A DNA stretch of 61,691 bases, from positions 62,001 to 123,691 of the forward strand of contig CAZPJY010000001.1 of NCBI GenBank assembly GCA_964587045.1. The letters run 5' to 3'. The translations under genes and the position numbers were made by a program. The number at the start of each line of letters is the position of its first letter. Position 1 is the stretch's first letter. The stretch comes from an uncultured Methanosarcinales archaeon. Lineage in GTDB: Archaea > Nanobdellota > Nanobdellia > Woesearchaeales > CAZPJY01. A model generated the notes under the pieces. It was not told where the DNA came from. It saw only the letters and a list, made by a program, of their open reading frames with translations, and ran no database searches. Of the stretch, positions 4,294-43,943 are shown piece by piece.

Positions 4294-4303
4294 AGTGGTA
4301 TCA

Positions 4304-7300: not shown

Positions 7301-8356
7301 AGCGAGACCCAAAAGAAGATGGACGAGGCCTTCAAGCAAAAGAGCCTCGAGAAGAGCGAGCAGAGGCGCAGCCTGTTTGACGTCTTCTCTCCCAGGAAGG
7401 AGGGTGAGGAGAAGCCTTCCGAGGAGAAGAAGGAGAAGGAGGAGAAGAAGGGCAAGAAGCTCGATGAGGGCATCGATGAGGAATGGATAGACATCGACAT
7501 CCTATCAGGCAAGAAGAAGCCGGAGAAGAAGCCTGCCCAGGAGAAAAAGAAGAAGGAAGAGGACGGCACCTTCGGAAAGCTCGCGGGCCTATCCAAGAAG
7601 AAGGAGAAAGAAGACCTCTTCGGCAGGCTCGACAAGCTGGCCAAGCCCAAAGGCGAAGAGGACCTCTTTGGCAAGCTGGGGAAGCTCTCGAAGCCCAAGA
7701 AGGAGAAGGGTGACCTTTTCGGCAAGCTCGACAAGATCAACAAGGAGAACGTGGACCAGACCAAGAAGAAGATAGACAGGGTGAGGAGCCTCAAGAAAAA
7801 GAAGAAGGGACAGGCGCACACCCACATATTCATCTACGTGCTCGCGATAATTATCATGTCCCTCGTCATAGGCTACGGCTATAATGCTGTGGCGGGTTTC
7901 CGCCAGCAGGCGGACGAGGTGGTTTACGTCAAGTTCAAGGCTGAGCTGTCCAAGATGGTCACCAAGATGGGTTCTGAGTACAAGTCTGTGGTCAAGACCC
8001 AGATGGACGTGCCTACCAAGTACGGAAAGATATGCTTCATACAGAGGATCGACCCTGCAATCCAGGTCTTCACCAGATGGGATGAAGACTTGTGCGATGG
8101 GCACAGCGCTCCTGTCCCGGATGAGCCGCTGGTCTGCGACAGCTGGTTCGACGGCCTGACCAACCGGATGAGGACGGATGTCAGCGACAACGTCTTCCTG
8201 CTGGAGGACCTTTCGGGCGACGCTTTCTTCGTGGACAAGATCGCGGTAAAGCCGGCCACTCCCGGTCAGCATTTCCTGTGCGTCGACGTCGTCGGGGGTA
8301 AGATAAGGCTACAGCTTCAGGGGGAGGGCGATGTCACGCGCATCTCCACGTGGTAA
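4304..8356 (+). CDS. Large membrane-anchored surface protein (signal peptide, Ig/FN3-like, Cys-rich and TSP3-like repeats, TM helix, Lys-rich tail) with a C-terminal pilin-like domain
   Basis: MRKEVLFLVVMMLLVGVSLA signal peptide; FN3-like YYWRVRAIN; three DxDCGG repeats; DSDGDGMPD repeats; TM LILVIIGALLLAGGAVFLFL; then KKKGQ plus hydrophobic helix near 7800. ATG 4304 preferred over GTG 4295. Confidence 0.85.
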   Translation: MRKEVLFLVVMMLLVGVSLADTYYRQGIYYTNNTRPSFVFDFGEESFVINSSLKDSTQETYSLSQPLSQDNITFRINVTEDLPEDGFTFEVFANDTVGNINHTTIMLVVDVTPPQLLDIYPGAGAVIEDSTPEFRIQFNEPVLTSPPSPPVQPWGGQIFLINVSNGAFQSLYFGGPDNMLFTYLPPYDISDGQKNYSVLVSDFSGNLLYHSHLFAINTHPLNIQLIQPRFGVANASTFDVVISTSAPSECRFSFSNDAFASMSPSSFTQTGAYQHVIGDFDYLANPRDEDIIYVKCRDYLEIVHSGQYTLSYLNGPSSLNIDIDPNPIIEWDKTTTVTVQSIDDIQCKYSNASGVYGLMTQFPGYDEDDRNAYASYHELFMSSQFQYVTDEGQHSFPYNFSCINLAGFVTAPQQRTISMDLSIPLTLEVISPERYTANRQISVNVTTNKPADCVYDNESVGIDSPSLGESDSYVHYVAIGSLPDGEYDYNIECTKGTDIIREVITFTIDTTPPSTPIIDDRNFSCDTTYLEAYWEAYDNESGIDHYEYMVEDSNGNEFIGWLETDDDDAQLRYLNLTDVKYYWRVRAINRVGVPGEIGTSRGVTIDPGAPQCREQVPPVGTLLVTYDSFGQAQVEILCQDAGSGCAANSTRYDFVPYGLPCSPSIPYVGPFKLTQDAVVCWAVYDNAGNEGTGNRNVTVEEGGFPSDSCSNGALDMGESDVDCGGPCEPCMAGSACIDSSDCESQFCDENVCVQPACDDGVMNGDETDADCGGSCPGKCEIDEACIVDEDCMSGVCTDGVCVPPSCTDRRLNQNETDVDCGGECPKCDIGKNCMTDRDCDSDYCELTEAKCEDYMLKDSDGDGMPDYWEIKYYLNPNDPSDADRDDDNDGLTNLDEFEFGTDPTNPDTDDDGVSDGREVSEGSDPNDPYDKPESNLLNLILVIIGALLLAGGAVFLFLHRRQRNEAAKLARAAMPAPSTKSSARAINILRQHPHVSREMSETQKKMDEAFKQKSLEKSEQRRSLFDVFSPRKEGEEKPSEEKKEKEEKKGKKLDEGIDEEWIDIDILSGKKKPEKKPAQEKKKKEEDGTFGKLAGLSKKKEKEDLFGRLDKLAKPKGEEDLFGKLGKLSKPKKEKGDLFGKLDKINKENVDQTKKKIDRVRSLKKKKKGQAHTHIFIYVLAIIIMSLVIGYGYNAVAGFRQQADEVVYVKFKAELSKMVTKMGSEYKSVVKTQMDVPTKYGKICFIQRIDPAIQVFTRWDEDLCDGHSAPVPDEPLVCDSWFDGLTNRMRTDVSDNVFLLEDLSGDAFFVDKIAVKPATPGQHFLCVDVVGGKIRLQLQGEGDVTRISTW
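6427..6856 (+). repeat. Three Cys-rich repeats (C-x-[ND]...E[ST]DxDCGG-x-C...C...DC-x-S-x2-C)
   Basis: CSNGALDMGESDVDCGGPCEPC, CDDGVMNGDETDADCGGSCPGKC and CTDRRLNQNETDVDCGGECPKC in the translation. Confidence 0.85.
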
Positions 8357-9410
8357 GCGGGGCATTATGGAGGTCCAGTTCAGCTGGATCTTCATCCTGG
8401 TCGTCGGCGGCCTGATACTGCTGTTCTTCGTCGCCATGGTCAACAGCCAGCGCGACTCCGCGGACACCAAGTTCTCAGCGACGCTGGCCAGGAGGCTGCA
8501 GTCGATAATGACAGGGGTCGAAGTCAGCGCTGGGACGGCCCACGAGATAGCCATACCGAAGACCAAGATTCTCGTGGACTGCAACAGCTTCTCCATCGGA
8601 AAGACCAGCAGGGTGTTCAAGAACCGAATACTGTACTCGCCAGACTTAATCAAGGGCCGCGAGCTGTTCACATGGACAGTGAGGTGGTCGGCGCCCTTCC
8701 CGGTCACCAATCTGGTGATGATGACCAGCTCCGACGTAATATACGTCTTCGTGAACTCTTCGGGACTGCCTTTCGAGGAATATCCGCAGCAGCTCTACGA
8801 GGAGCTGCCAGACAACATCACAAAGAGGATAGTGAGCAGAGCCTCAGACCTCCAGGACATCGACTTTTCCAACTACTACAAGGTCAAGATGGTGTTCATC
8901 GACGACCCTGGAAGCGAGGCCGCCTACGTGACAGGCATACCGGAGGTGGACGTGAAGGCCATCAAGATAGAGCCCCAGGCAACCTACGGCGGCACCATGG
9001 AGCGCAGCTACGGACAGATACGCTTCTACAGGAAGAGGTCGGGGTCCTTCGTCTTGGAGGACGCGGCTGAGCCATCGCTCCCTTACGTCGGGCTGGCCAT
9101 GATGGCAGGCGCGGTCTTTGCGGAGGGGGAGGAGATGTACGGTTGCTCGCTTGCCAAGGCGTCCTCGCGCCTGGATCTGGGGATACTGCTGACCATGGAC
9201 AGGGCCAGCGGGTTGAGGAAGCTCTTGCATTTCGCCAACCTGGAGCCGGGGAGCCCGCTTTCTGGCTGCGTGTACTACAGCCTCATGAACCTGGAGATAA
9301 TGCACGACAACTCAGACCTTTCCGACCTGGTGGCCTTTGGGAACGCTGCCCAGGAGCTTTACAGGCAGAACGAGGTGCTGGAGGAATACTCATGCCCGCT
9401 AATATACTGA
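8331..9410 (+). CDS. Class III signal peptide (pilin-like) protein
   Basis: RGKRG/IMEVQFSWIFILVVGGLILLFFV: basic residues, Gly, then a hydrophobic helix; overlaps the upstream stop. Confidence 0.75.
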   Translation: MSRASPRGKRGIMEVQFSWIFILVVGGLILLFFVAMVNSQRDSADTKFSATLARRLQSIMTGVEVSAGTAHEIAIPKTKILVDCNSFSIGKTSRVFKNRILYSPDLIKGRELFTWTVRWSAPFPVTNLVMMTSSDVIYVFVNSSGLPFEEYPQQLYEELPDNITKRIVSRASDLQDIDFSNYYKVKMVFIDDPGSEAAYVTGIPEVDVKAIKIEPQATYGGTMERSYGQIRFYRKRSGSFVLEDAAEPSLPYVGLAMMAGAVFAEGEEMYGCSLAKASSRLDLGILLTMDRASGLRKLLHFANLEPGSPLSGCVYYSLMNLEIMHDNSDLSDLVAFGNAAQELYRQNEVLEEYSCPLIY

Positions 9411-9952
9411 GGAAGGCGCAGATCAAGATGGCCGAGTCGGTCGGCGTGCTCTTCATATTCTTCATACTGCTCGGCTTCGGCATGATATTCTACTCAAACT
9501 TCCAAAAGAGCGGAATGGCTGAGACCCAGCTCGAGTTCTCGGAGATGACAGCCGTCGAGCTTTCCCAGAAGATCTCCTTCCTGCCCGAGATCGCCTGCAC
9601 CAAGAACGGTGTCGTCGACCAGGACTGCTTCGACATAATCAAGCTTGACAACCTGACCAAGAGGATAAAGGACAGGCACGACGACACCTTCATGGACTAT
9701 TACAGCCAGGTGTTCGGCAATGCTAACATTACGGTCACGCAGGTGTACCCTCTCGTTGACCCCGACGAAGACCCCTACAACCCCTCCACGCACAGGTCTT
9801 GGTACCTATACAACCGCACCCCTCCGGGCCAGTACAGCACGTTCTTCACCCAGGTGCCGGTGGTGCTCTTCAACGCGACCACAGGCGACCCTGACGAGAG
9901 GTATTTCGGCGTGCTCGAGGTGGAGGTATACGTCCCGGTGGTGACAGGATGA
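9392..9952 (+). CDS. Class III signal peptide (pilin-like) protein
   Basis: Start re-called at ATG 9392 after GGAGG; LRKA/QIKMAESVGVLFIFFILLGFG. Confidence 0.8.
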   Translation: MPANILRKAQIKMAESVGVLFIFFILLGFGMIFYSNFQKSGMAETQLEFSEMTAVELSQKISFLPEIACTKNGVVDQDCFDIIKLDNLTKRIKDRHDDTFMDYYSQVFGNANITVTQVYPLVDPDEDPYNPSTHRSWYLYNRTPPGQYSTFFTQVPVVLFNATTGDPDERYFGVLEVEVYVPVVTG

Positions 9953-10479
9953 GGAAGCGCGGGCAGATGGAGATAATAGGCATCGCTTTGGTGGTGATTC
10001 TCGTGAGCCTAGGCCTGCTGTTCATGATATCTTTCTCCCTGCAGCGCAGGGAAAGCACCATCAAGCAGACCTACACCCACACTGAGATGGCCTCGAACGT
10101 CATCAACACGGTCCTCAACACCAAGGTGGAGTCCTGCAAGGGCATGCTCGTGGCCGAATTGCTCTCGGAATGCGCCAGGATGGGCGACGGCGCCCTGGAC
10201 TGCGAGGATGCCAGCTTCACGCCGTCAGGGGGTTACCTTTGGCACAACGACACCTGCACGAAGGCCGAGGCGGTCATAGGGTTCGTACTGAACAGCACCC
10301 TCAAGGTGTGGCAGAAGCCCCATCACATGTACACCTCAGGCCTTGACATGGATTTCATGTATGAGAACTGCGACAAGACCAACCTTGAGGAAGGGGGGTG
10401 GAGCAACGTGGAGAGCAAGACCTTCATACTTCCTCTGCATCCTGGTGTTTTAACCATCACCCTCGATATTTGCAGTTAG
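9949..10479 (+). CDS. Class III signal peptide (pilin-like) protein
   Basis: MRKRG/QMEIIGIALVVILVSLGLLF, a canonical motif; ATGA overlap with the previous gene. Confidence 0.85.
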   Translation: MRKRGQMEIIGIALVVILVSLGLLFMISFSLQRRESTIKQTYTHTEMASNVINTVLNTKVESCKGMLVAELLSECARMGDGALDCEDASFTPSGGYLWHNDTCTKAEAVIGFVLNSTLKVWQKPHHMYTSGLDMDFMYENCDKTNLEEGGWSNVESKTFILPLHPGVLTITLDICS

Positions 10480-10515
10480 AAGGCATTTATCTATTAGTAT
10501 ATAATTTCCGCAACA

Positions 10516-10523
10516 TTTAAATA
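10516..10523 (+). promoter_or_regulatory. Putative TATA box for the small-pilin unit
   Basis: TTTAAATA in the AT-rich intergenic gap; AGAGGTGA ribosome-binding site before ATG 10577. Confidence 0.55.
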
Positions 10524-10576
10524 CTACCTCTCTCATTAATGGACTTAGAATCACGCTGATAAAGAGGTGAATCTCG

Positions 10577-10819
10577 ATGAGGAAGAAGGGCCAAGGAATC
10601 TCCATGAATGTGATTATCATCGCAGCAATAGCACTTCTGGTTCTCGTCGTCCTCTCCATCATCTTCATGGGTAGGATGGGCCAATGGGGTGCCGACGTCG
10701 ATAGCTGTGTCACTAAAGGAGGAACATGCTTGTCTGCTTGCGATGCCGCAACTCAGACCCCGTACCCGCTCTGGAGCTGCGACGAAGGGCTGACCTGTTG
10801 CGTTGCGAAAGTAACATAA
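10577..10819 (+). CDS. Small pilin-like protein with six-Cys C-terminal domain (candidate major pilin)
   Basis: MRKKG/QGISMNVIIIAAIALLVLVVL followed by C-x6-C-x3-C-x12-C-x5-CC. Confidence 0.85.
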   Translation: MRKKGQGISMNVIIIAAIALLVLVVLSIIFMGRMGQWGADVDSCVTKGGTCLSACDAATQTPYPLWSCDEGLTCCVAKVT

Positions 10820-10825
10820 ACGAGG

Positions 10826-10833
10826 TTTTTTTT
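10826..10833 (+). terminator. Possible oligo-T terminator after the first small pilin
   Basis: T run directly after stop 10819. Confidence 0.35.
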
Positions 10834-10834
10834 C

Positions 10835-11116
10835 ATGTTTTATAAAAAGGGCGTCTCAATATCGATGAATACTCTCATCATAGCTGCGATTGCCCTCATT
10901 GTTCTCATTGTCCTGATTGCGATCTTCGTGACTCGCGCTGGGGTATTCTCTTCTGAATATGACAGCACTACGGGCCAGGTGCTGGGCTCTACATGCTATG
11001 GGCATGGCGGGAGGTGTGCGGCCTCAGACGCTACATGCACGATTGTCGATTACCCGCCTGGCGTTTCCACTTGGACGGATTGCGGGTCTGGTCAAATATG
11101 CTGCAGCCTAATCTGA
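10835..11116 (+). CDS. Small pilin-like protein with six-Cys domain
   Basis: YKKG/VSISMNTLIIAAIALIVLIVL; C-x6-C-x6-C-x14-C-x5-CC. Confidence 0.85.
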   Translation: MFYKKGVSISMNTLIIAAIALIVLIVLIAIFVTRAGVFSSEYDSTTGQVLGSTCYGHGGRCAASDATCTIVDYPPGVSTWTDCGSGQICCSLI

Positions 11117-11349
11117 GAAGAGGCATCTCAATATCGATGAACACCCTAGTGATAGCAGCTTTGGCCCTGATCGTTCTCATAATCCTGATTGCAATCTTCA
11201 CAGGCAAGATATCGCTGTTCTCAAACACGGCTTCGAGCTGCACCGCGAACGGTGGCAGGTGCACCGCAGAGCCGTGCAACCAAAATGAGGTGCTCTATCT
11301 GGGCCAGATGTGCCCCAACTCTGAGGAGCGCTGCTGTCACGAGTTGTAG
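11098..11349 (+). CDS. Small pilin-like protein with six-Cys domain
   Basis: Start re-called at ATG 11098; LRRG/ISISMNTLVIAALALIVLIIL; C-x6-C-x4-C-x11-C-x6-CC. Confidence 0.8.
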   Translation: MLQPNLRRGISISMNTLVIAALALIVLIILIAIFTGKISLFSNTASSCTANGGRCTAEPCNQNEVLYLGQMCPNSEERCCHEL

Positions 11350-11355
11350 CGAAAC

Positions 11356-11363
11356 ATATAAAT
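11356..11363 (+). promoter_or_regulatory. Putative TATA box, leaderless transcript
   Basis: ATATAAAT about 25 nt upstream of ATG 11388. Confidence 0.45.
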
Positions 11364-11387
11364 AGGCTTCTCGCCGGTATTCTGCTT

Positions 11388-11498
11388 ATGAACAGGAAGG
11401 CCATGCAGCTCGAGCATATCATCGTTCTGTCCATAACCCTCCTCGCCATGGGATTCATAGGCTTCATCATCCTGCGGTCCATGGGGGTGCTGGGCTGA
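11388..11498 (+). CDS. 36-aa micro-pilin-like peptide (not in the ORF track)
   Basis: Translated by hand: MNRKA/MQLEHIIVLSITLLAMGFIGFIILRSMGVLG; TGATG coupling to the next gene; TATA upstream. Confidence 0.75.
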   Translation: MNRKAMQLEHIIVLSITLLAMGFIGFIILRSMGVLG

Positions 11499-12508
11499 TG
11501 CTTCGGAAGGACGCACAGAGCCACCTGCAGTGGGGCATCATAATTATTGTCACCTTCTTCATACTCACTTTCCTGACCATAGGCATCCTCCACCACCTGG
11601 GCTCGGTCTCTGAGAGGGAGGTTTGCCGTTTGAGCATAGTCGCAGCGAGCAACATCCAGGGTGTGACGGGCGACCCGCTCCTCAGCCTTGAGTGCGAGCC
11701 AATGGACCGGGAGATTAAGTTTGAGGAGGTCAGTAAAAAAGAGGGTGTCAGGTGGGTGCTTGACGAGGACAAGCTAAAAGGGGAGGTAGCACGGGAGATT
11801 TACAACTGCGCCTACATGGTCAATTATAGAAAGATGGGAAATGATGAGGATCCCTACTCACGTTTTGGAGGCGACAACAAGTATTGCTTGCTGTGCGGTG
11901 AAATCACCTTTGACGATAAGATAAAACAGGCTTTAAACGGTGGGACGATAGACAAGATGACTACATGGATGGCCACTCATCACCTGCCTGACGAGAAGGA
12001 TTCGTTCTTCAAGCTGACCTACGGCTTTGATCCGACGCCTGAGCAGTTGCAAAAGTTGGAATCTGCTGACCATGCGAAAATCAATCCCAATATCCCATAC
12101 ACCGTATTTTGGCGTTTGGACAAGGATGCCCAGAGCTGGGGCCAGCTCATTACAACCATAGGGATAGGTATCGGAGCTGCGGTAGCTGTCACAGCAGTTG
12201 TTGCATGCATAGCGGCGACGGTAGGTGCTTGCGCAGGATTTGTCATCACAGCAGGGGCTGCAGCGAGTAGCACTACCTTGACGCTTGTGGCGACAGGTCT
12301 TGCAGCAAGTGCTTCGACCATAGGTAACACGGCAGGCATCCTGATATTTACTGGTTCATACAGGACATTTATGGAGGGTGATACGGGTTCCATATCCTCT
12401 GACATAATCCTCGCTCCAACGGCCGCGATCACTGGCAAGTTCCCTGACGACGAGGAGCAGTACGGCAAGCTGGCAGATGAGTATCTGTGCGAGATAGTGG
12501 TGAACTAG
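11498..12508 (+). CDS. Pilin-like protein with Cys-containing domain and long Gly/Ala hydrophobic segment
   Basis: RKDA/QSHLQWGIIIIVTFFIL (atypical class III motif); paralog of the next gene (YCLLCGEITF vs FCVICYEIDF). Confidence 0.7.
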   Translation: MLRKDAQSHLQWGIIIIVTFFILTFLTIGILHHLGSVSEREVCRLSIVAASNIQGVTGDPLLSLECEPMDREIKFEEVSKKEGVRWVLDEDKLKGEVAREIYNCAYMVNYRKMGNDEDPYSRFGGDNKYCLLCGEITFDDKIKQALNGGTIDKMTTWMATHHLPDEKDSFFKLTYGFDPTPEQLQKLESADHAKINPNIPYTVFWRLDKDAQSWGQLITTIGIGIGAAVAVTAVVACIAATVGACAGFVITAGAAASSTTLTLVATGLAASASTIGNTAGILIFTGSYRTFMEGDTGSISSDIILAPTAAITGKFPDDEEQYGKLADEYLCEIVVN

Positions 12509-13357
12509 ATGAACCGCAAAGGATTCTCTGAGAGCGTCCTTAAGGGCATGGTGCTGGCCCTGATAATATTCGTCATCCTCCTGCTCCTGTACCACACGAT
12601 CTTTGATTTCACCAGCGCCTATGTCTCACACATGGAGTGCAAGGAGAGCGTCAAAGCCGCCGCAGCCCTCAGGTTCAAGGGAACGAGCCTCATGGACAAT
12701 GTCAAATGCCCGACGACCTATGAGAGGATAACCTCAAGCAAGCCTGATGAAATCAAGATGGAGCTGGCCAAGTACATGTTCATGTGCGGCAGCACTTTCT
12801 ACGATGAAGAAGGCAAGATTATGGACATCTTCATGAACGAGGACGAACGCTTCTGCGTGATATGCTACGAGATCGATTTTTCCCATGAGGGTGTTGAGCT
12901 TACTGACATGGGGCGTTTTTTCATGGAGACAAACATCCCTAAAAAGCTGAATCCAGGCAGTGAGCCCGTCACTTTCGGGTCATATTTCCTTCCTCCCGGG
13001 ACTGAAGAGAGGGACATATACTTCCCCCCGACCTCTGATCAGCTAACCACGGACCACCCACTCGGGATCGTGTTCATACTGGACAAGGATGCGCATCTGA
13101 GCCTTCTCAGGAGATTCGCCACATTCGCGGGGATAGGTGGGGGCACAGCTGCAGCGGCTTTGGTGGTGGGAAGAGTAGTGACCCAAGCCCCAGTACCCCT
13201 TCCTGTGAGTGCGTTCATTTTCGGATCGGCACTGGCTGCAGGGGCTGCATCCATACCATCCTACGAGGATGCCGACCTCTGGGCGACCATCGTCGCATGG
13301 CCGTATTCTGAGATAGGGCAGCTCAACTGCACATATATGCCATCAGAGCAGAGCTAA
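12509..13357 (+). CDS. Pilin-like protein, paralog of 11498-12508
   Basis: MNRKG/FSESVLKGMVLALIIFVILL; shared Cys spacing and LDKDA motif; hydrophobic GIGGGTAAAAL...ALAAGAA segment. Confidence 0.75.
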   Translation: MNRKGFSESVLKGMVLALIIFVILLLLYHTIFDFTSAYVSHMECKESVKAAAALRFKGTSLMDNVKCPTTYERITSSKPDEIKMELAKYMFMCGSTFYDEEGKIMDIFMNEDERFCVICYEIDFSHEGVELTDMGRFFMETNIPKKLNPGSEPVTFGSYFLPPGTEERDIYFPPTSDQLTTDHPLGIVFILDKDAHLSLLRRFATFAGIGGGTAAAALVVGRVVTQAPVPLPVSAFIFGSALAAGAASIPSYEDADLWATIVAWPYSEIGQLNCTYMPSEQS

Positions 13358-13367
13358 ATCAAAAATC

Positions 13368-13375
13368 TTATAAAA
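13368..13375 (+). promoter_or_regulatory. Putative TATA box, leaderless transcript
   Basis: TTATAAAA preceded by an A-rich BRE-like run, about 23 nt before ATG 13398. Confidence 0.5.
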
Positions 13376-13397
13376 CCCTCTTGCTGTAATCCTAGGC

Positions 13398-13553
13398 ATG
13401 GACAGCAAAGGGCAGCTTACCGAGCAGCTTGGGAAATGGATTCTCATGATAATCGTCCTGATGGTCATTCTTATAATCATAGGACTGCTGAGAGGCAACA
13501 TGTCCAACCAATGGGAGGCTCTCAAGAACCTGCTCAGCTTCGGTGGGGGATAG
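13398..13553 (+). CDS. 51-aa micro-pilin-like protein (not in the ORF track)
   Basis: Translated by hand: MDSKG/QLTEQLGKWILMIIVLMVILIIIGLLRGNMSNQWEALKNLLSFGGG; next gene starts 1 nt after the stop. Confidence 0.8.
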   Translation: MDSKGQLTEQLGKWILMIIVLMVILIIIGLLRGNMSNQWEALKNLLSFGGG

Positions 13554-13554
13554 C

Positions 13555-14160
13555 ATGACTGGCAAGTACCTGCTGGCACTGATAGTGATGGCTGTGGTGC
13601 TCGTGATAGCGGGCGTCATCAACACCGCACCCTTTGTCAAGATATTCCGCACCGCATTCCCCGAGCTGAGCCCTTACGACTATGATGAGATCTCCGATAA
13701 CTTCATAAGCATAATAGAGACTCAGCCTGAAGAGGTCGCAATATTCCCGTACGCGGTTGATGACTGGTACGGCATCGACCAGGACATCGACTGTGAATAC
13801 GGCGAGTGCACCGTTATAATATACTTCGACAAGCAGGTAGACGAGACCAAAGTGAACCAGGTCATGAAGATATACAAGGAGGCCGACGGATGCGCTGGAG
13901 GGACCGATGAGGAGTCAGACTTCACGCTGGTCCACCCAAGGGACTTGAAGGTGAAGAACGAGAAGGGGGGCATACTGTCGAACATAGAGCTGACCTTCCC
14001 TGAAGAGTGCACTGGAGCCACCTTCTTCGGAAGGCCTGGGGCCAAGGACTACATCATCAGGTTCGATCCCAACCTCCCGTTCAGCAAGCCTGAGGTCTCG
14101 GAATCGCAGTCTCTGCCCATCAACAAGGACACAGCCTTGGTCAAGTTCAGCATAGGGTGA
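13555..14160 (+). CDS. Membrane-anchored/secreted hypothetical protein (Ig-like)
   Basis: ATG 13555; N-terminal hydrophobic helix without a class III motif; acidic beta-rich body. Confidence 0.65.
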   Translation: MTGKYLLALIVMAVVLVIAGVINTAPFVKIFRTAFPELSPYDYDEISDNFISIIETQPEEVAIFPYAVDDWYGIDQDIDCEYGECTVIIYFDKQVDETKVNQVMKIYKEADGCAGGTDEESDFTLVHPRDLKVKNEKGGILSNIELTFPEECTGATFFGRPGAKDYIIRFDPNLPFSKPEVSESQSLPINKDTALVKFSIG

Positions 14161-14164
14161 TCAC

Positions 14165-14419
14165 ATGAAGAAGGCCGACATGACACTATCCACCATCGTA
14201 AAGGCGATTCTCGTCCTCATAGTCCTGGGGATACTCATCTTCATACTTGCAAGATACACAGGCATATTCAAAGGCGGCATCGAGCAGCCCTGCGAGCCTC
14301 CGGGCAGCTGCCAGTCCACCTGCCTGGGCTACCAGACTCCGGAAGGCGAGATGACGGTCCAGACCCCGAGCAACTGCCAAAACGGCGTCTGCTGCATGCC
14401 TGTCTCAGAGGTGAGCTGA
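14165..14419 (+). CDS. Small pilin-like protein with six-Cys domain
   Basis: MKKA/DMTLSTIVKAILVLIVLGILIF; C-x5-C-x3-C-x17-C-x4-CC. Confidence 0.8.
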   Translation: MKKADMTLSTIVKAILVLIVLGILIFILARYTGIFKGGIEQPCEPPGSCQSTCLGYQTPEGEMTVQTPSNCQNGVCCMPVSEVS

Positions 14420-14420
14420 G

Positions 14421-14699
14421 ATGAGGAGATCCGAGATGACTCTCTCTACCGTTGTCAAGATGGTGCTAATACTGGTGGTGCTGGCCATCCTCCTGTTCTT
14501 ATCGTACAGGTACCTGCTAAAGGGCACGCAGGACCAGCTCAATCCCATCGAGCGCCTCACCTCAGCCAGGTCGTGCTGCGTCAGGCACTGCATGGGAGAG
14601 GTTGAGCCGACAGAATGCGGCCCACTGATAGGCTCGAACGGCGAATACAACTGCAACTGCGCGAACGGCGACGTCGAGAAGAGAGTGGTAAAGCCATGA
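14421..14699 (+). CDS. Small pilin-like Cys-rich protein
   Basis: MRRS/EMTLSTVVKMVLILVVLAILLF, paralogous N-terminus to the previous gene; six Cys in a different order (CC first). Confidence 0.75.
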   Translation: MRRSEMTLSTVVKMVLILVVLAILLFLSYRYLLKGTQDQLNPIERLTSARSCCVRHCMGEVEPTECGPLIGSNGEYNCNCANGDVEKRVVKP

Positions 14700-15322
14700 T
14701 CCGCTCCAAGAGGGCATTCAGGCTTTCCCTTACAGAGACCATCGGTCTCGTGCTCGTCGCGCTGATAATCGTCTTCACACTGGGTTTTTGGACCAAGCTG
14801 TACGGCATATTCTACGGATCAGAGCTCGACGAGTACTCAGAGGCCAGCTTCAACCGCTTAACTACTAAGGTCCAGGAGATGGTCAGCAATCCTGACGAGA
14901 ACATAAACGAGGTCACTTTGGTCTACTACATCAAGAACGGCCTCTCCCTGCGGGGCTTCAGCGCCGAGGAGAACGTGATCAGGGACACCTGCCTTTCCAA
15001 CGAGGACTTCCACAAGCCTTCCCTCTGCGGCGCTTCGAAGGGCTGCTTTTGCATCTGCGACGAGGAGGAGACGGTGTGCAAGGACGACTTCCGCTGCGTG
15101 GCCATCGACGGCGTCACCAAGATATCAGGGTACAACGTTGACTACAACCTAGGGGACGCCAGGAGCGGCACCACAGGGACCAACTACCTCATAATATACG
15201 GGGACTGCGACGGCGGGGGAGGCGGGCCCTTCCAGACCCGGACCCTGAAGGTCACAAGGATAAAGGACAGGGAAGACCCGGACAAGTACGAGCTGGTTGT
15301 GGAGGCTTCCCCCCTCGAGTGA
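14696..15322 (+). CDS. Class III signal peptide (pilin-like) Cys-rich protein
   Basis: Start re-called at ATG 14696 (ATGA overlap); SKRA/FRLSLTETIGLVLVALIIVF; CFCIC motif. Confidence 0.75.
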   Translation: MIRSKRAFRLSLTETIGLVLVALIIVFTLGFWTKLYGIFYGSELDEYSEASFNRLTTKVQEMVSNPDENINEVTLVYYIKNGLSLRGFSAEENVIRDTCLSNEDFHKPSLCGASKGCFCICDEEETVCKDDFRCVAIDGVTKISGYNVDYNLGDARSGTTGTNYLIIYGDCDGGGGGPFQTRTLKVTRIKDREDPDKYELVVEASPLE

Positions 15323-15366: not shown

Positions 15367-16395
15367 ATGAGGGGCAAGAGAGGCAATATCCTAAATGAAA
15401 TGTTCTTCTCCATATTCCAGCTAGTCATCCTTGCATTCATTCTCATCGGACTGAAGGTCTGGGTAGACAACGTAGTGAGCGACGAGACGTTCGAGAGGAA
15501 CTTCATGGCACGGGACGTCGCATTGCTGATCGACACCGTTTACACGGCTCCGGGGAACGTCGAGGTGGACTACCCACAGAACACGCGCCACCTCAACTTC
15601 ACCTTCGAGCCCAACCTGGTGAGGATCACCCATCCTGACGAGACGGCGTCGGTGCCTCCTGCGGTGTACCCGTTCGCCGAGGACCTGGCGGTGCCCTTCG
15701 CCTACTCCTCAGTGGCTCCGGAAAGGCTTACGAACGACGAGCTGGGACCATCGGTCAAGCTGATGGCAAGCAAGATCAACAACCGCGTGGCCGTGAGCGA
15801 CAAGCCGGTCTCCCTCACGTCCAGGGCCTCCAAGCTCGTGTGCCTGCAGGCGTCCACCCGCGACCCGAACTGGCATAGCAAGGAGGTCTACTACGACCCG
15901 GGGCACGGTGAGGGCAGCGGGATAAACAGGGAGGCCCAGTTCGCCAGGCTGGTAGGGCTCGAGCTCCAGAACGAGATCCCTGGCATCAGGAGCACCAAGG
16001 GCAGCTTCATAACCCAGGCCGACACGCCGCTTGAGAGGAGGCTAGACGCGATAAAGCATGCTGCTCTGGTGGTGAGCGTCCACCAAAACGACGGAGGCGA
16101 GAACACGAACGTGATATTAGCGTACATACCTCCGCTGTCGCTGGAGAGCCAGAAGCTGGGATGCCTGATCCTCAACAGCATCCTGGACGAGCTGCCTGAT
16201 GAGTTCTCGAGGGCTGACCTGATACCGGCCGATGACATACCGCCAGATGACCCTATGCAGATCATCGACACAGGGATACCGTCGGTGCTGCTCGAGGTAG
16301 GCAACGCCAACAGGGACACCTTGCCCGACGCTGCGGCTGTAGCTGCCGGCATCGGCAGGGGGGTCTCGGCATACTTTGGGGTGACTGCACGTTGA
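15367..16395 (+). CDS. Pilin-like protein fused to N-acetylmuramoyl-L-alanine amidase (Amidase_3) domain
   Basis: GKRG/NILNEMFFSIFQLVILAF N-terminus; amidase motifs YYDPGHG, RE, TPLERR, VSVHQND and PSVLLEVGN (His/Glu/His Zn ligands plus catalytic Glu). Confidence 0.8.
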   Translation: MRGKRGNILNEMFFSIFQLVILAFILIGLKVWVDNVVSDETFERNFMARDVALLIDTVYTAPGNVEVDYPQNTRHLNFTFEPNLVRITHPDETASVPPAVYPFAEDLAVPFAYSSVAPERLTNDELGPSVKLMASKINNRVAVSDKPVSLTSRASKLVCLQASTRDPNWHSKEVYYDPGHGEGSGINREAQFARLVGLELQNEIPGIRSTKGSFITQADTPLERRLDAIKHAALVVSVHQNDGGENTNVILAYIPPLSLESQKLGCLILNSILDELPDEFSRADLIPADDIPPDDPMQIIDTGIPSVLLEVGNANRDTLPDAAAVAAGIGRGVSAYFGVTAR

Positions 16396-16898
16396 AGCGG
16401 GGCATGATGTCATTCAACATCGTTTCGTGGGTGCTCAGGATACTCTTCGTGCTGGCCGGACTGCTGGCTGTCGTGCTCCTGGTCCGCATGTACCAGATTG
16501 ATTCCGTGGACATCAAGGACATACACGCGGAGATCGTCAAGAACCGCGTACTCTACGCCCCCTCGGGCGTGATGCACGCAGACATGGAGACAGGCCGCTC
16601 GTACCCGGGCCTGCTTGACCCAGCCAGGTTCAACGACTCGGTCCTGTCAGGCACCATCAACTACGGCACCAAGAGCAGAACGCTCTCTGCCAAGCTGTAC
16701 TACAGCGACAATCAGGGAGTCCTGAGGGAGGCTTACACGAACAAGACCTGGTACCGCCGCTGGGAGCCAGCGGTCGGCGTTGCCGGGCCCGGCGGGGCGG
16801 TCGAATACATGTACAGGCTGCCTGTTGTGGTGCTCAACGAAACCAGCGGGGATTACCCAACAACGCTGTACATCAGTGTCATAATACCGAACAGCTGA
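16392..16898 (+). CDS. Class III signal peptide (pilin-like) protein
   Basis: MKRG/MMSFNIVSWVLRILFVLAGLLAVVLL; TTG start overlapping the previous stop. Confidence 0.75.
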   Translation: MKRGMMSFNIVSWVLRILFVLAGLLAVVLLVRMYQIDSVDIKDIHAEIVKNRVLYAPSGVMHADMETGRSYPGLLDPARFNDSVLSGTINYGTKSRTLSAKLYYSDNQGVLREAYTNKTWYRRWEPAVGVAGPGGAVEYMYRLPVVVLNETSGDYPTTLYISVIIPNS

Positions 16899-16900
16899 AA

Positions 16901-17443
16901 ATGAGAGGAAAGAAAGGATTCATATCTGACGCGATGGCGGATTTCTTCGCCTACCTGCTCTTTTTTGTAGTGGTGCTGCTGTTCTTCTTCCTTTTCAAGT
17001 ACGAATCCAACAACATCACCAACGAGGTCTCGCCTGAGATCACCACCACGGACTACAGCTACTACCTCACCAGCATGATGTACCTTCCTGTGGAGGAGGA
17101 CGTCGACTTAGACGGCACTCCTGAAAGGATGCAGCTGGGCGAGTTCCTGTCATACTACTACATCTACCCGGAGAGGTACAAGGACCGGGTCGAGCAGATC
17201 ATAACGGAATACATCGGGGCGAGGTCCGGAACAGAGCTGTCATGGGACGTTATTATCTCAGCTCCCGATAGGGACACGCTCAGGATCACGAGCAACAACA
17301 TCGTCCAGGACCTGATCCTCGAGCCGGGAGAGGTGTTCGGAGACCAGGAGATGATCGTGCCTCTCATAGCAAATCATGGTGTGATGAGCGTGAGAATCAA
17401 GCTGTATACCCTCGAGCTGGTGACGCCAGGGGTGATATTATGA
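16901..17443 (+). CDS. Class III signal peptide (pilin-like) protein
   Basis: MRGKKG/FISDAMADFFAYLLFFVVVLLFFFLF. Confidence 0.75.
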   Translation: MRGKKGFISDAMADFFAYLLFFVVVLLFFFLFKYESNNITNEVSPEITTTDYSYYLTSMMYLPVEEDVDLDGTPERMQLGEFLSYYYIYPERYKDRVEQIITEYIGARSGTELSWDVIISAPDRDTLRITSNNIVQDLILEPGEVFGDQEMIVPLIANHGVMSVRIKLYTLELVTPGVIL

Positions 17444-18524
17444 ACAGGAAAGGCTCATTCTTCAATNNNNNNNNNNCTTCGTGATAATCATAACTAGCAT
17501 ACTCATCTTTGCGTATGTCAGCCTGACCAGCAAGTACAAGATGTACGGCGAAGACGGCGAGCAGCGCCTTATCGGGGACCTGCAGTTCAGGGTGCTGTCC
17601 AGCTATCAGGAAGGGGAGAAGGCGCTGCAGTACGTTGACCGCTCAGCCGGGTTCGCAGCACTCCAGGCGGCCTACACGCTGGGCCAGGACGGCGGTTTCT
17701 TCCTGCCAGACTCGGGGACTGACCACAATCCGTGGGACATGTCAGACTGCGGGGAGTACGGGAGCTACAACTTCTGGAACAACAAGTCGGCCGACTGCTA
17801 CCCAGAAGACTTCAAGTCCAGCTACGTAAAAGACCTGGACAGGGAGCTGAACAGCTACATCTCTTTGTACTCTGCGGCCCTGATCCCGGTAAACAACTAC
17901 GTATATCTGGTGTCTGACAACGGCAGCGCAATCAACCTGACAGGGATCGCGCTCAGGCCGATCGACATCAACATAGGAAAGCAGATCCTCTTTGCCACTT
18001 CGCTGATACACGGGGAGGGAATCTTCATATGGCCAGTCGACGATTCATCACCCCTCCACAAGCTGATCACCTCTTGCTTCGGGCTGCGCAACTGCGTGCG
18101 CTGCGACGACCAGACCCACGACGCCGTCGACATCGACGGGACCACCGGCGATCTGATACTCGCTGCGGCGGATGGGGTCGTCACCCGTGTCGGGGGCACG
18201 TACAACCTCGTTGCCCTCGAGCACGCGGACGGCTACGAGACCTACTACCTGCACAACAACAAGCTGGAGGTTGAGGTCGGCGACGAGGTCAAGCAGGGCC
18301 AGGTCATCGCCAGGATGGGCGGCTGGGGGAGGACCGGCCCCAACCACTACGGCGACCACCTGCATTTCGGCATCAAGAAGGACGGGCAGTGGCTCGACCC
18401 GCTGGACCCGAGGTACGGCTTCTACGACATCGAGAAGCTGGGCCTGACATTTTCGCATGACGCGAACTGCTGCTACGCCCCAGAGCAATACCAGTACTCG
18501 GACCTAATGACGTGCTTGACATGA
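17440..18524 (+). CDS. Pilin-like protein fused to M23 family Zn endopeptidase; spans an assembly gap
   Basis: True start ATG 17440 (MNRKG/SFFN, GGGGTGA RBS, ATGA overlap), then a 10-N gap. M23 motifs WP, HDAVDI (HxxxD), AAADGVV, YYLH, VKQGQVIA and HLHF (HxH). Confidence 0.85.
17467..17476. other. Assembly gap (10 N)
   Basis: N run inside the hydrophobic segment of the M23 gene; the true length is unknown. Confidence 0.95.
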
Positions 18525-20710
18525 GACTTGCGATAATAATCGGACTGTGCATCCTGCTCGCGCCTGTGGCGTTTGGGCAGTACGTTCAGGAGGACCCGAC
18601 TGAAAACGACCTCGCATGCGACACGACGGTGCACTGGGCCTCTGACATCACCGTTCCGGACATCTGGGAAGAGCTGCAGGCGTACGACTCGCCCCTATCA
18701 CAGGCTGATGCGACGTACATATTCACCAAAGGCACGACGATGGGGATCGATCCCGCTTTCCTGATGGCGGTTTTCCGAATGGAGAGTGAGTACGGTACCG
18801 CAGGCATAGCCATGTCTACCCACGGGGTCGGCAACGTACGTCACACCCAATCGTGCGCGTTCGACTACAAGGGATTCTGCGGCTACCACACCTGGCAGGA
18901 TTCGATCGACGCGTGGTACGAGCTAATCGCAGGCCCGGTGTACATGAGCGGAGGGCTGACGACGGTGGAGGCAATCATCCCCAAATACGCGCCTTCGACC
19001 GAAAACGACGTCGAGAGCTACATCAGCTTCATCAGGGATTATTTCTCATACTATAGGGATGACATGCCGCCGCGCTGCTCGGCCGGGGACTCTGTGGGAC
19101 TGTACCAAGCGGTCCCGTCATTCCGCCACGAGCTGGACTACACCCTCGACATATACCAGACCCTCATCGAGGAGAGCCAGGAGCTCATCGAGGAGTGCTC
19201 GTACGAGGATGACTTCAAGGCCTGCGTCGACCGATACCTTGCAGGGTTCAATTCGGGGACTGAAGACTACACTTGGGGCTACTCGTGCGACGAGGGTCCT
19301 GAGCAGGTCTTCAATTACATACTTGAGCAGTACAGGGACTGCCTGAACGCCTTTTCCAACTACTGCGTGTGCGCAATCGACCTCGCCCAGCCTGAAGGGC
19401 GAGGTGTCGGCGGCGAGTACGAGATAAACATAACCCAGGTTGGGGACAAGACCAAGTTCGAGCTGGTCGATGACGGCATCCAAGTCGACATCAAGGAGGT
19501 GGTGAGCTCCTATTTCAGCTTGGCGAACGGCGAGCTGAACGACCCGCGGAACGCGCACAACATGCTGACCCTGTTCACCGAAGGCACCCTAAGGCTGAAC
19601 TACGTCGGCAGCAGCCCGCAGTCCGTGAGCATCAGCGGGTTCGATCTGGTCATCGACGGCACTTCTACCAGCTACGCAGGGCTCGGTACCAACGTTCTCT
19701 ACTTTTTCAGGAACAACAGCGTAATGGGACTCGTGCCGGCGAGCAAGTACTCTGCGCACGAGTGGAAGAACCTGCCCCAGTGCGTGATCAACAAACGCAA
19801 CTACCGCTTCTGCGTGAAGGACGAGGCCCACAGCTTCATGATCTACGACCCGGTAACGGGCGACCGCTCGTTCTCGTCCCCTGACATCAAGTTCGCCCTT
19901 CACATCAGGGACCTCGTGCCGCCTCCGCCGCTGGAAGACCTGGTGCTTATGGACGCGCCGAAGCGCGAGACCGGCTTCGTGGCCTCATGGCAGGAGTCAA
20001 ACGAGACCGACGTCGTGCTCTACTCAGTGTATACTGACGACGGCTCTTTCTCAGACGTCAGGTCGGCCTCGGACTCCTATTCGTTCGACCCGAGGCTAGT
20101 CGAGTGCGACCTGCGCTCCCTTGACCTGACATCGGGCGAGCTGCAGCCGCCGTACGTCTACGAAGCTGTCGACTTGGAAGGCGATGAATTTGAGGTCCAG
20201 CTTGAGATGGAGAAGCCATGCCACGCAGGGGACAGATATTACATGATGGTGCCGGCAGAGGAGGAAGGAACGGTCTACGCAGCTGTCACCGCGACCGACG
20301 ACTCAGGCAACGAGGACCCGTCTGTGCACGCCTTGAGCGTGAGGGTGGAGGACGACTTGGGTCCGTCCGAGGCCACAGGCATCGACTTCTATTCCCAGCC
20401 ATCCAACCCGAATCTCATCAACGTGGTCTGGACCATTCCGACGACGAACGAGGACGGGAGCCAGCTGACTGACCTCGCATCCTTCACGCTGTCGCACATG
20501 GGCGCACCATTCAGCTTCTCGGCAGCGCAGAAGATCGTCGTGCAGAGGATGCAGACATCGCCTCCGACGCCGAGCGAGCCCACCAGTCCCATCCAGGTGA
20601 GCTACATCGTGAGCGCTCCGGGACGGCCCGTGCCTTACTGCGTGCACGTGGCGCCGGCTGACGATGCGGGCAACGAGAACAGCGAGCTGACACAAGTGGT
20701 CTGCAGATAA
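18521..20710 (+). CDS. Secreted protein with glucosaminidase (GH73)/lysozyme-like domain and C-terminal FN3-like domains
   Basis: Sec-type signal MRLAIIIGLCILLAPVAFG; GIDPAFLMAVFRMESEYG (catalytic Glu), Y.TWQDSI, GLTTVEAIIPKYAP; AVTATDDSGNE and VAPADDAGNE FN3-like ends. Confidence 0.75.
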   Translation: MRLAIIIGLCILLAPVAFGQYVQEDPTENDLACDTTVHWASDITVPDIWEELQAYDSPLSQADATYIFTKGTTMGIDPAFLMAVFRMESEYGTAGIAMSTHGVGNVRHTQSCAFDYKGFCGYHTWQDSIDAWYELIAGPVYMSGGLTTVEAIIPKYAPSTENDVESYISFIRDYFSYYRDDMPPRCSAGDSVGLYQAVPSFRHELDYTLDIYQTLIEESQELIEECSYEDDFKACVDRYLAGFNSGTEDYTWGYSCDEGPEQVFNYILEQYRDCLNAFSNYCVCAIDLAQPEGRGVGGEYEINITQVGDKTKFELVDDGIQVDIKEVVSSYFSLANGELNDPRNAHNMLTLFTEGTLRLNYVGSSPQSVSISGFDLVIDGTSTSYAGLGTNVLYFFRNNSVMGLVPASKYSAHEWKNLPQCVINKRNYRFCVKDEAHSFMIYDPVTGDRSFSSPDIKFALHIRDLVPPPPLEDLVLMDAPKRETGFVASWQESNETDVVLYSVYTDDGSFSDVRSASDSYSFDPRLVECDLRSLDLTSGELQPPYVYEAVDLEGDEFEVQLEMEKPCHAGDRYYMMVPAEEEGTVYAAVTATDDSGNEDPSVHALSVRVEDDLGPSEATGIDFYSQPSNPNLINVVWTIPTTNEDGSQLTDLASFTLSHMGAPFSFSAAQKIVVQRMQTSPPTPSEPTSPIQVSYIVSAPGRPVPYCVHVAPADDAGNENSELTQVVCR

Positions 20711-42905: not shown

Positions 42906-43943
42906 CTATTTAAGCTTTTTGAAGACAAGCATCTCCAGGTCCTCAGCTCCCTGCCATACGGTCTCTGACGATTCGAGTGCCCATCCCTCAGCAGCTCCGC
43001 GCACCTCGTTTCCGGAACGGGTGAGTATCACCATCCTTCCATCCAGGATGGTTTTTGCGCAGGCGAAGAGGTCCCGGTACCTCCTAGTCGAATCTGACCT
43101 GGATGTCATGTTGGGAGGGTATGTTACGATTGCTGATACCTCACCATTCCCGAACTTCGTATCTAGCCATTCCACCTCGTTCCTCGAGAATTGGATGTCA
43201 ACCCCTGCCACTTTTGCGTTCTTCCTGCTGGCGGCAATCGCTGAGAACTCCTCATCGACAGCCACGACCGTCCTGTCGTCCTTTACGGCCGGCGGATCGA
43301 CGGGGCTGGTTTGGAAGAGCCGTTTTCGGTAGTACTGTGGGGATTTGTTCTTGGCCATCAGCGCCGCTTCGATGGTGATGGTGCCCGAGTTGCAGAAAGG
43401 GTCGAGCAGTATGCCTCGTTCCCAACCGGCTTTCATGACGGCGGCTGCGGCGACCGTCGGCTTGAGGGTCCTTCTCCTGTGGAAGACCATGTAGTCGCGC
43501 TTCGATATGTCGAAGCCCGCGACATCTGACCCGAGAAAGCAGGTCCCTGCGGAGAAGACGGCTATGTAGCTGACGTCAGGCGAGCTCAGGTCGACCTTTG
43601 CGCCTCCGCAGTCCTTGTATATGGCGGATCCTATCATCCTCTCCAGCTCATCGGCAGGGAACGCCCTGTCACCGGCGCATCTCACCCGAAAGCTCTTTTT
43701 TGGGTCATGGCCCACCTTTAGGGGAGGGATGCTGTCTAGGTCAAAGAACTTGAAGGACACCTTGAAGCGGAGGACGTTTGTGAAGGTCCGGCCCATGTAC
43801 GCAAGCTTCAGCAGCTCATCTTCGCTTGCGGAAAAGCTCACTGTTCCCGGAGAAGAGGTCTGGGCTTTCTTCCCTATCAGACTTCTTATCTCCGCTATCG
43901 CTTCTTGCTCTATCCCTTTGTTGCAGAATATCAGTGCTTCCAT
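42906..43943 (-). CDS. THUMP domain RNA methyltransferase (Trm14/RlmL-like)
   Basis: [44 protein letters not shown]. Confidence 0.8.

Follow-up and report, generated by a model that had tools for sequence, protein, structure and literature searches.

Why would an archaeon that appears to build no murein encode an enzyme for cutting it, and why would that enzyme be joined to something resembling a pilin? The question is raised by a gene in a 61,691-nucleotide stretch of contig CAZPJY010000001.1 (assembly GCA_964587045.1), which we refer to throughout as the window. An original prediction, made from the sequence alone, described this gene as a pilin-amidase fusion with an intact zinc site. We find a 342-codon open reading frame (ORF) with an ATG start exactly where that prediction had put it, and this ORF, called the target below, is a genuine gene carrying a true but very diverged homolog of the Amidase_3 family. 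The interpretation given in that prediction is largely borne out. From its sequence and the models built on it, we lean on balance towards reading the product as an active murein amidase that is displayed on the cell surface by a pilin-like carrier and aimed at bacterial walls. The stronger claim, that the target is a subunit of a filament, is one we put forward only tentatively.

Identity of the amidase domain

The domain is best recognised through its family. An exhaustive HMMER search of 1.84 billion representative sequences returned 617 relatives of the target at an expectation value (E) of 1e-3 or lower, and 113 at E <= 1e-10. Alignment A1 was assembled from the 57 of 150 matches listed that aligned in one stretch covering most of the query, together with two sequences from genome loci, giving 59 rows. 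Searched against the PDB, the profile of A1 finds 16 solved Amidase_3 sequences at E <= 1. The best is C. difficile CD2761 (4rn7, E 3e-20), whose chain residues 4-182 align end to end with profile positions 163-343; Cwp6, CwlD, LytH and CwlV are the other top matches. Pfam Amidase_3 is found at E <= 0.01 in 48 of the 59 A1 members (best 5e-19), and several family members exceed the Pfam cut-off, with 61.5, 58.4, 53.1 and 51.9 bits.

The structural comparison gives the same identification. An AlphaFold2 model of the target built with A1 has a mean predicted local distance difference test score (pLDDT) of 91.2 and a predicted template modelling score of 0.79. The top three Foldseek matches of this model are CwlD (7rag, E 2.1e-10), CwlV and Ami1, with Rv3717, 4rn7, AmiC2, AmiP and LytH among the further ones. 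Expectation values range from 2e-10 to 1e-7 for CwlD, CwlV, Ami1, Rv3717, AmiC2 and LytH, and the template modelling scores for the matched single-domain amidase chains lie between 0.55 and 0.74. The comparison of profile and structure with CwlV and AmiC that was proposed with the original prediction supports it: family profile and model both match CwlV, and the model also matches AmiC2.

In the profile alignment the DPGHG, E, SxH and ExG positions known from the solved enzymes are occupied in the target by His180, Glu189, His239 and Glu310, and the LLEVGN stretch around Glu310 aligns with the LIECGF-type motif of 4rn7. Passages of two structural papers give the zinc ligands of CwlD as His49, Glu65 and His133 with Glu199 as the catalytic residue (PMC8496864), and those of LytH as H128, E145 and H193 with a conserved E255 (PMC9245657). 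Because they match these residues, the four positions in the target are read as zinc ligands and catalytic Glu. Asn241 stands at the H-x-[D/N] position, which in many amidases is a solvent-facing Asn according to a passage of the LytH paper (PMC9245657).

The A1 profile spans enzymes of 176-188 amino acids (4rn7, LytH, CwlV) from end to end, whereas it matches AmiA, AmiB and AmiC only in part or in two separate pieces. Inhibitory helices are described for AmiB (3NE8) and AmiC (4BIN) in a passage of PMC8496864, and no autoinhibitory-helix insertion is seen in the sequence or the model of the target amidase domain. As judged from alignment and model, the C-terminal domain is a compact Amidase_3 fold with an intact His/Glu/His plus Glu set, so that the original prediction was right both about the retained metal ligands and catalytic Glu and about the compactness of the domain. 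Tracing where the domain came from is another matter: a word-index search with A1 at E <= 1e-10 yielded nine proteins, namely the target, four relatives (one of them named 'hypothetical protein') and four bacterial-type AMIN+Amidase_3 proteins, which is too few for a phylogeny of the amidase donor.

The organism and its lack of a murein pathway

The genome, which is rated 100% complete, comprises 50 contigs with 1.6 Mb in total. The window encodes RadA, RadB, PCNA, an RPA-like OB-fold protein, an archaeal-type RNase J and ribosomal protein S2. The nearest protein-atlas clusters are 100% archaeal and labelled Candidatus Woesearchaeota or Nanobdellota, a label that comes from the atlas only. By these sequence comparisons the genome is probably that of an archaeon of the Woesearchaeota type, within the group known as DPANN.

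Scans of the genome gave no match to Mur_ligase_M and none to the penicillin-binding-protein transpeptidase domain. The same scans found two M23 genes and two SLT genes. We thus found no pathway for a wall of its own, yet several enzymes that cut bacterial murein are encoded. As far as it can be tested in this way, the earlier statement that such an amidase has no substrate in its own cell stands, and since no murein pathway was found in the archaeon, the inferred substrate is bacterial peptidoglycan.

With regard to type IV filaments, the genome has one Peptidase_A24 prepilin peptidase gene (53.2 bits), five genes for T2SSE ATPases and eight matches to the T2SSF platform protein.

The N-terminal module

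The target begins with MRGKRG, followed by NILNE and then by 18 hydrophobic residues (aa 12-29). Cleavage after Gly6 would place a Glu at +5, a residue not conserved in the family at large. Within their first 45 residues, 76 of the 80 family members (59 full-length and 21 consisting of the N-terminal module) have a [KR][GA] dipeptide, mostly 40-45 residues ahead of a conserved Asp50. Three of the four members that lack it begin inside the helix and look like short gene calls. The module also occurs on its own in relatives as proteins of 141-169 amino acids, including one in the single-contig genome G024.

We folded residues 1-164 in a second AlphaFold2 model together with 20 of these stand-alone relatives (pLDDT 86.6). 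DSSP assigns helices to residues 4-38 and 41-60 in the full-length model and to residues 5-37 and 41-60 in the model of residues 1-164, followed in each by a beta sheet. A helix of about 55 residues with a beta head is the shape of a type IV pilin, if the models are right. The VIA fold search, which is independent of Foldseek, was run with the module; 12 of the 50 rows listed are pilins or pseudopilins, including ranks 1, 2, 4, 6, 7 and 8, and among them are PilE, PilA4, S. sanguinis PilB, PilV, EpsG, EpsI/J and PulG. The best Z score is 4.0. Pfam has no family of any kind for the module in 21 sequences searched. Judged chiefly from the models, the module may be a kind of pilin.

The locus in the window and in related genomes

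Between positions 8331 and 20710 every gene lies on the + strand, and at their N-termini most of the products have a [KR][GA] leader with a hydrophobic helix (a 12-kb operon; Table 1). Three tandem genes upstream of the target encode small Cys-rich proteins that, by sequence, look like putative major pilins and are candidates for the major filament subunit. The upstream operon genes, these three included, have no Pfam family. A crude test scored the leader motif in seven of the operon's 17 called ORFs, compared with 58 of 1804 in the rest of the genome (Fisher p 7.8e-7). The figure is rough, since two of the small pilin-type genes were missing from the gene call and some antisense ORFs remained in it.

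The target is followed by two further genes of the same kind (+1 and +2), whose families (alignments A4 and A5) have KKG/KKA-type leaders. The third (+3) carries a Peptidase_M23 domain behind an N-terminal module of its own. A run of 10 N at 17467-17476 breaks the 5' end of this M23 gene, and the GTG at 17481 that is listed as its start is unlikely to be the real one; the probable start is the ATG at 17440, which overlaps the stop of the preceding gene in another frame and begins MNRKG, a class III-like N-terminus. The operon closes with a 732-aa protein that is 41% identical over 129 aa to a Glucosaminidase+VanY protein of the relative G018, which itself passes the Pfam Glucosaminidase cut-off. 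With the amidase, the M23 peptidase and this GH73-like protein, the operon has murein-cutting enzymes of three different bond specificities.

We also modelled the target (residues 36-342) in complex with the +1 protein (residues 34-168). The score was 0.51 against 0.00 for the best of three controls, the runs agreed in at least 83% of contacts and the pLDDT of the partner was at least 81. The mark used in this test was reached by 116 of 157 solved complexes and by 2 of 215 mismatched pairs; scores of 0.60 or lower that still passed came from 18 of the 157 solved complexes and from both of the passing mismatches. The prediction gives weak support to a complex between the two products.

The M23 domain keeps HxxxD and HxH, the motifs of this family. 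A role for the M23 protein as a LytM-type amidase activator, like EnvC or NlpD, was considered and seems unlikely, given these motifs and given that Amidase_2 or SLT stands at the same position elsewhere.

A BLAST-type scan of 41 genomes (our own and 40 relatives of the same order) found matches to the family in 29, our own included. When 301 genomes of the phylum were scanned with a profile, 233 had matches: our own, 188 others from its order and 44 from its class. Among the matches listed in this phylum scan the amidase part is present in at least 42 genomes, or in at least 40 of 299 if G262 and G263 are left out.

To compare the surroundings of the gene we examined the loci of nine relatives and scanned 147 neighbouring ORFs against Pfam. 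Searching with the A1 profile places a family member in all nine. The shared order runs from a giant surface protein with TSP3 or immunoglobulin-like (Ig-like) repeats through many small genes without a family to the family member, two small genes and a large protein; beyond the locus, several relatives have the RPA-like gene, YdjM, RadA and TRAM, as in the window. Giant surface proteins head the locus also in G016, G001 and G024, and the loci of G012 and G026 end at or just past the family member. From the conserved gene order it follows that the locus is chromosomal, old and vertically inherited, and not a recent import.

The large proteins at +3 share a module of about 165 amino acids at their N-termini, with NKKA, NRKG or RKKG leaders (BLAST E 1e-8 to 1e-18), and differ in what follows. 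The domain is M23 in the window and in G016, Amidase_2 in G009 and G023, and SLT in G001; G024 has a weak 3D-domain match below the Pfam cut-off, and in G037 no domain is recognised. G023 additionally has an SLT protein, and G018 has its Glucosaminidase+VanY protein upstream. Altogether, five of the seven loci with enough flanking sequence carry a further significant murein-hydrolase domain (M23, Amidase_2, SLT or Glucosaminidase+VanY).

A further gene was noted in the G023 locus, where a 437-aa GDSL lipase/acylhydrolase protein (L031:8188-9501) adjoins the family member. It may extend the same toolkit with an activity that modifies membrane or wall.

Proposed function

If the favoured reading is right, the preprotein would insert into the membrane, the single Peptidase_A24 homolog would remove the MRGKRG leader and the hydrophobic N-terminal helix would hold the protein in the membrane. 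From there it could become a minor or tip subunit of a type IV filament that also contains the neighbouring pilin-like products. The short linker, probably tied by a disulfide between Cys159 and Cys266, would present the catalytic domain outside the cell, where a zinc-dependent N-acetylmuramoyl-L-alanine amidase would strip stem peptides from the glycan strands. Other types of bond would be left to the operon's M23 endopeptidase and GH73-like glycosidase, and jointly the enzymes might open the wall of a bacterial host or prey locally at the point of contact. Extended to the relatives, this would make the locus one for type IV filaments, inherited vertically across the order, with murein hydrolases on two carrier modules as minor subunits; it would be a tool for opening bacterial walls. 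We regard that wider picture as possible but short of probable.

Evidence against this function and alternative explanations

A number of results weigh against the function proposed here. The first concern the domain as seen in the target alone. Against Pfam Amidase_3 (PF01520) the target scores 17.4 bits (E 0.0049), below the gathering cut-off of 27 bits; this match, the sole Pfam match in the protein, pairs aa 177-314 with positions 4-146 of the 174 in the profile. When the whole genome was scanned in six frames with PF01520 at E <= 1, the target was missed. The target had no match in NCBIfam and none by phmmer against all PDB sequences, a word-index homolog search with it returned only itself, and a genome-contig search for related loci with the single protein found no relative. 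Since the single-sequence matches are marginal, the motif call of the original prediction cannot be confirmed from the target sequence alone.

So weak a match would also fit an artefact, either a bacterial contaminant contig or a chance ORF. The gene, however, sits among archaeal RPA-like, RadA, RadB, PCNA and RNase J genes, the same arrangement is found in nine other genomes of the order, the family is present in 233 of 301 sampled genomes of the phylum and the nearest atlas clusters are entirely archaeal. We therefore rejected contamination and chance on synteny, and give an artefact hardly any credence.

That a domain scoring 17.4 bits is very diverged from the bacterial enzymes could also mean that its substrate is not bacterial murein, but an amide bond in a glycan of the archaeon's own envelope or the pseudomurein of an archaeal host. 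The DPANN hosts known so far are archaea, and the only cultured examples live on other archaea, which would suit such a substrate. On the other hand, the partner domains (M23, SLT, Amidase_2, GH73 and a VanY-type D-Ala-D-Ala peptidase) are murein-specific in kind, no Mur-ligase-type gene was found in the genome, and pseudomurein contains neither D-amino acids nor N-acetylmuramic acid. We consider a substrate of this other kind very unlikely.

The second set of results concerns catalysis. At least one zinc ligand has been lost in 24 of the 59 A1 members (~40%), with His180 conserved in 41, Glu189 in 49 and His239 in 43. When the ten loci are compared, the tetrad is degenerate in G009, G012, G016 and G023 (the G012 gene extends to the contig end), it reads K-E-H-E in G018, where Lys replaces the first His, and the G024 member is a 155-aa N-terminal module with no amidase domain; the window, G001, G026 and G037 have it intact. 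The fold is retained where catalysis must be lost, which means that the family has a role beyond hydrolysis, and its conserved role need not be catalysis.

These losses could be explained if the amidase fold served as a peptidoglycan-binding or structural module, an adhesin or a scaffold, with hydrolysis left to other enzymes. Such a module would fit the conservation of other positions: Cys159 in the linker and Cys266 are found in every one of the 59 members, those that have lost zinc ligands included, Asp177 is kept in 55 and Glu310 in 57. It would also fit both loci that carry Amidase_2 on the +3 gene (G009 and G023), in each of which the fused Amidase_3 is degenerate, a two-out-of-two observation that is anecdotal. 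Yet the full His/Glu/His/Glu set is kept in 35 of the 59 members, including the target, and this is hard to explain without selection for catalysis. A purely non-catalytic role seems improbable to us, and by its sequence the window copy is one of the members that can still be an enzyme. The invariant Cys pair suggests, from the alignment, a structural disulfide that would tie the linker to the amidase fold.

The third set concerns the pilin and the filament. Foldseek with the model of the N-terminal module found nothing at E <= 0.001, and the VIA scores, at Z 4.0 or lower, are within the noise range of that tool and common for helical models. No Pfam pilin family was found at E <= 0.1 in the target or in 21 relatives of its N-terminal domain, nor at E <= 1 among 12 neighbouring proteins of the target. 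Because there is no match to a pilin signature, we do not file the target under a named pilin family and describe it only as working like one. Support for the class III N-terminus and pilin-like domain of the original prediction comes from the leader motif, the helix with its beta head, the prepilin peptidase and the similar N-termini of the neighbours; the fold matches, however, are weak and the family signature was not found. There is no assembly ATPase or platform gene on the contig of the window; all of these genes are on other contigs, as is the Peptidase_A24 gene. A 2026 census finds type 4 filaments to be scarce in DPANN archaea, and mentions no murein enzymes in the part concerned (PMC13705601).

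With the pilin fold unproven and no ATPase or platform gene beside the locus, the N-terminus might simply be a signal-anchor, and the protein a membrane-anchored ectoenzyme that, with the other hydrolases, digests free peptidoglycan debris to supply a metabolically poor archaeon with amino sugars and peptides. The catalytic evidence fits such feeding equally, and so does the small genome of 1.6 Mb. What a plain anchor would not need are three consecutive conserved families with a [KR]K[GA] leader at a fixed position and three tandem pilin-type genes, and the giant adhesin-like proteins with TSP3 and Ig-like domains that head the locus in the window, G016, G001 and G024 fit contact with cells instead. 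We think feeding unlikely, though it is the alternative we take most seriously beside a surface-displayed amidase acting on bacterial walls.

Relation to known systems

Known kinds of protein stand behind this finding, namely modular pilins and archaeal peptidoglycan hydrolases. CwlV (1jwq), CD2761 (4rn7), CwlD (7rag) and LytH (7tj4) resemble the target in fold, in a domain of about 175 amino acids, in the His/Glu/His site and catalytic Glu, and in an exposed site without an inhibitory helix. LytH and CwlD have an N-terminal membrane tether, as is proposed for the target. Unlike these compact enzymes, the target is very diverged and is found in an archaeon in which no murein pathway was detected; it is fused to a pilin-like module and not to wall-binding domains of the SH3, AMIN or SPOR type, and its family has an invariant Cys pair, one in the linker and one in the catalytic domain.

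For bacteria, 264 architectures of modular type IV pilins have been described, one of them with a peptidase module (Raynaud et al. 2021, PMC8179133, main text). The S. sanguinis proteins PilB and PilC of that paper have the build that is proposed here for the target: the class III leader is followed by a small pilin module and a short linker, onto which a functional module is grafted. In that text modular pilins are bacterial and defined by IPR012902, whereas the target is archaeal, has no pilin signature and carries a murein amidase as its graft. The words 'amidase' and 'archaea' are absent from the main text of PMC8179133.

Archaea without murein are already known to encode murein hydrolases, which are thought to target bacteria and are prominent in Nanoarchaeota (Strock et al. 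2025, PMC12352652). As set out in the sections concerned, this survey required a recognised wall-binding domain beside the catalytic one and reported SignalP 6 signals as Sec or Tat (PMC12352652), and Amidase_3 was among the catalytic domains surveyed (S10 Table, PMC12352652). No recognised cell-wall-binding Pfam domain was found in the target. With no such domain and a class III-like leader, the target family would escape counting by the rules given in those sections.

Large lytic-transglycosylase proteins have been reported from Woesearchaeota and Pacearchaeota, with bacterial hosts or prey proposed (Castelle et al. 2021, PMC8204110; Vigneron et al. 2022, PMC9723730). They come from the same kind of organism and led to the same inference as the target does, extracellular murein degradation, possibly for attachment or predation. 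The proteins in the main texts of these papers differ in being giant and of family GH23, with no pilin-type module or operon described, whereas the target is an Amidase_3 domain on a pilin-like module; 'amidase' and 'pili' are absent from both main texts. The sugar-binding proteins of the Sulfolobus bindosome offer a precedent of another kind, archaeal proteins that are not pilins but have a class III signal peptide and surface display by a type IV-like assembly system, as is proposed for the target (PMC3047682). They differ in being binding proteins for uptake and not enzymes, in belonging to an unrelated lineage and in having a dedicated Bas assembly system encoded with them (PMC3047682).

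Our search of the literature, subscription journals aside, found no description of a pilin-amidase fusion or of this locus in DPANN archaea. What is new in this context is an order-wide pilin-like locus with two different carrier modules bearing murein hydrolases, in archaea that apparently lack such a wall. Most DPANN archaea have no known host or lifestyle, and the locus offers tangible evidence, open to testing, of cross-domain contact with bacteria. It would extend the idea of modular pilins to archaea and to wall-cutting enzymes. Domain-based surveys miss the enzyme family because it has no known wall-binding domain and no Sec or Tat signal, and such enzymes are possibly of interest as antibacterial lysins. 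If the filament-borne reading is true, much of a diverse uncultured group would live on or prey on bacteria rather than archaea, and type IV filaments could act as carriers for wall-degrading enzymes.

Features of the locus and further observations

Table 1. Positions of the target gene, its parts, the genes of its operon and the +3 genes of related loci
Feature	Position	Strand	Basis or remark
Target gene, 342 aa: class III-like leader, pilin-like module and compact Amidase_3 domain	15367..16395	+	ORF, family search, AlphaFold2 model
Putative leader MRGKRG, aa 1-6; probable cut after Gly6	15367..15384	+	Sequence; [KR][GA] leader in family
Long N-terminal helix, aa 7-60: Glu at +5, hydrophobic aa 12-29, then amphipathic part	15385..15546	+	DSSP on AlphaFold2 models
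Beta-sheet head of pilin-like module, aa 61-150	15547..15816	+	Strands 65-147 in both AlphaFold2 models
Cys159 codon, in linker, family-invariant; probable disulfide to Cys266	15841..15843	+	Alignment A1
Amidase_3-type catalytic domain, aa ~171-337	15877..16377	+	Profile against PDB; Foldseek
His180 codon (DPGHG, aa 177-181), zinc ligand 1	15904..15906	+	Profile alignment
Glu189 codon (within REAQF), zinc ligand 2	15931..15933	+	Profile alignment
His239 codon (SVHQN, aa 237-241), zinc ligand 3	16081..16083	+	Profile alignment
Cys266 codon, in amidase-domain helix, family-invariant	16162..16164	+	Alignment A1
Glu310 codon (LLEVGN, aa 308-313), catalytic Glu	16294..16296	+	Profile alignment
Upstream part of operon, ~11 genes with [KR][GA] and hydrophobic N-termini	8331..15322	+	
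Three tandem paralogous small genes, 80-93 aa	10577-10819, 10835-11116, 11098-11349	+	KKG/RRG leader, ~20-residue hydrophobic helix, Cys-rich C-terminal part
+1 gene, 168 aa, pilin-like N-terminus MKRG	16392..16898	+	Homologs directly after the family member in 7 other loci (alignment A4)
+2 gene, 180 aa, N-terminus MRGKKG	16901..17443	+	Alignment A5, 7 sequences, Lys before G/A invariant
+3 gene: ~165-aa N-terminal module and Peptidase_M23	17440..18524	+	Pfam M23 1e-24; second carrier series
732-aa secreted protein, GH73/glucosaminidase-like domain and long C-terminal region	18512..20710	+	Weak Pfam Glucosaminidase, E 0.0079
+3 gene of a related locus	L027:6561-8576		Second carrier series
+3 gene of a related locus	L028:7461-8546		Second carrier series
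+3 gene of a related locus	L029:12154-13524		Second carrier series
+3 gene of a related locus	L031:5151-6167		Second carrier series
+3 gene of a related locus	L032:3749-5803		Second carrier series
+3 gene of a related locus	L034:6451-8532		Second carrier series

At the head of the locus, at 1-8356 on the + strand, are genes for two giant surface proteins, one longer than 1430 aa and the other of 1353 aa, with Glucodextranase_B-like, Ig-like and TSP3 repeat domains. The second of them combines a Cys-rich repeat region with a membrane helix, a long stretch rich in Lys and Glu, and another hydrophobic helix.

A look-up of sequencing runs listed five DNA runs labelled salt marsh metagenome, one with more than half of the sampled words, which is no evidence on habitat, and listed no RNA run, which is likewise no evidence on expression.

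Two other genes of the window were noted away from the locus. A full-length DNA gyrase subunit A is encoded at 43816-46437 on the - strand (Pfam 3e-169). At 46555-48174 on the + strand a GGDEF diguanylate cyclase domain (Pfam 6e-28) is encoded as part of a 539-aa protein; signalling by cyclic di-GMP is generally regarded as bacterial.

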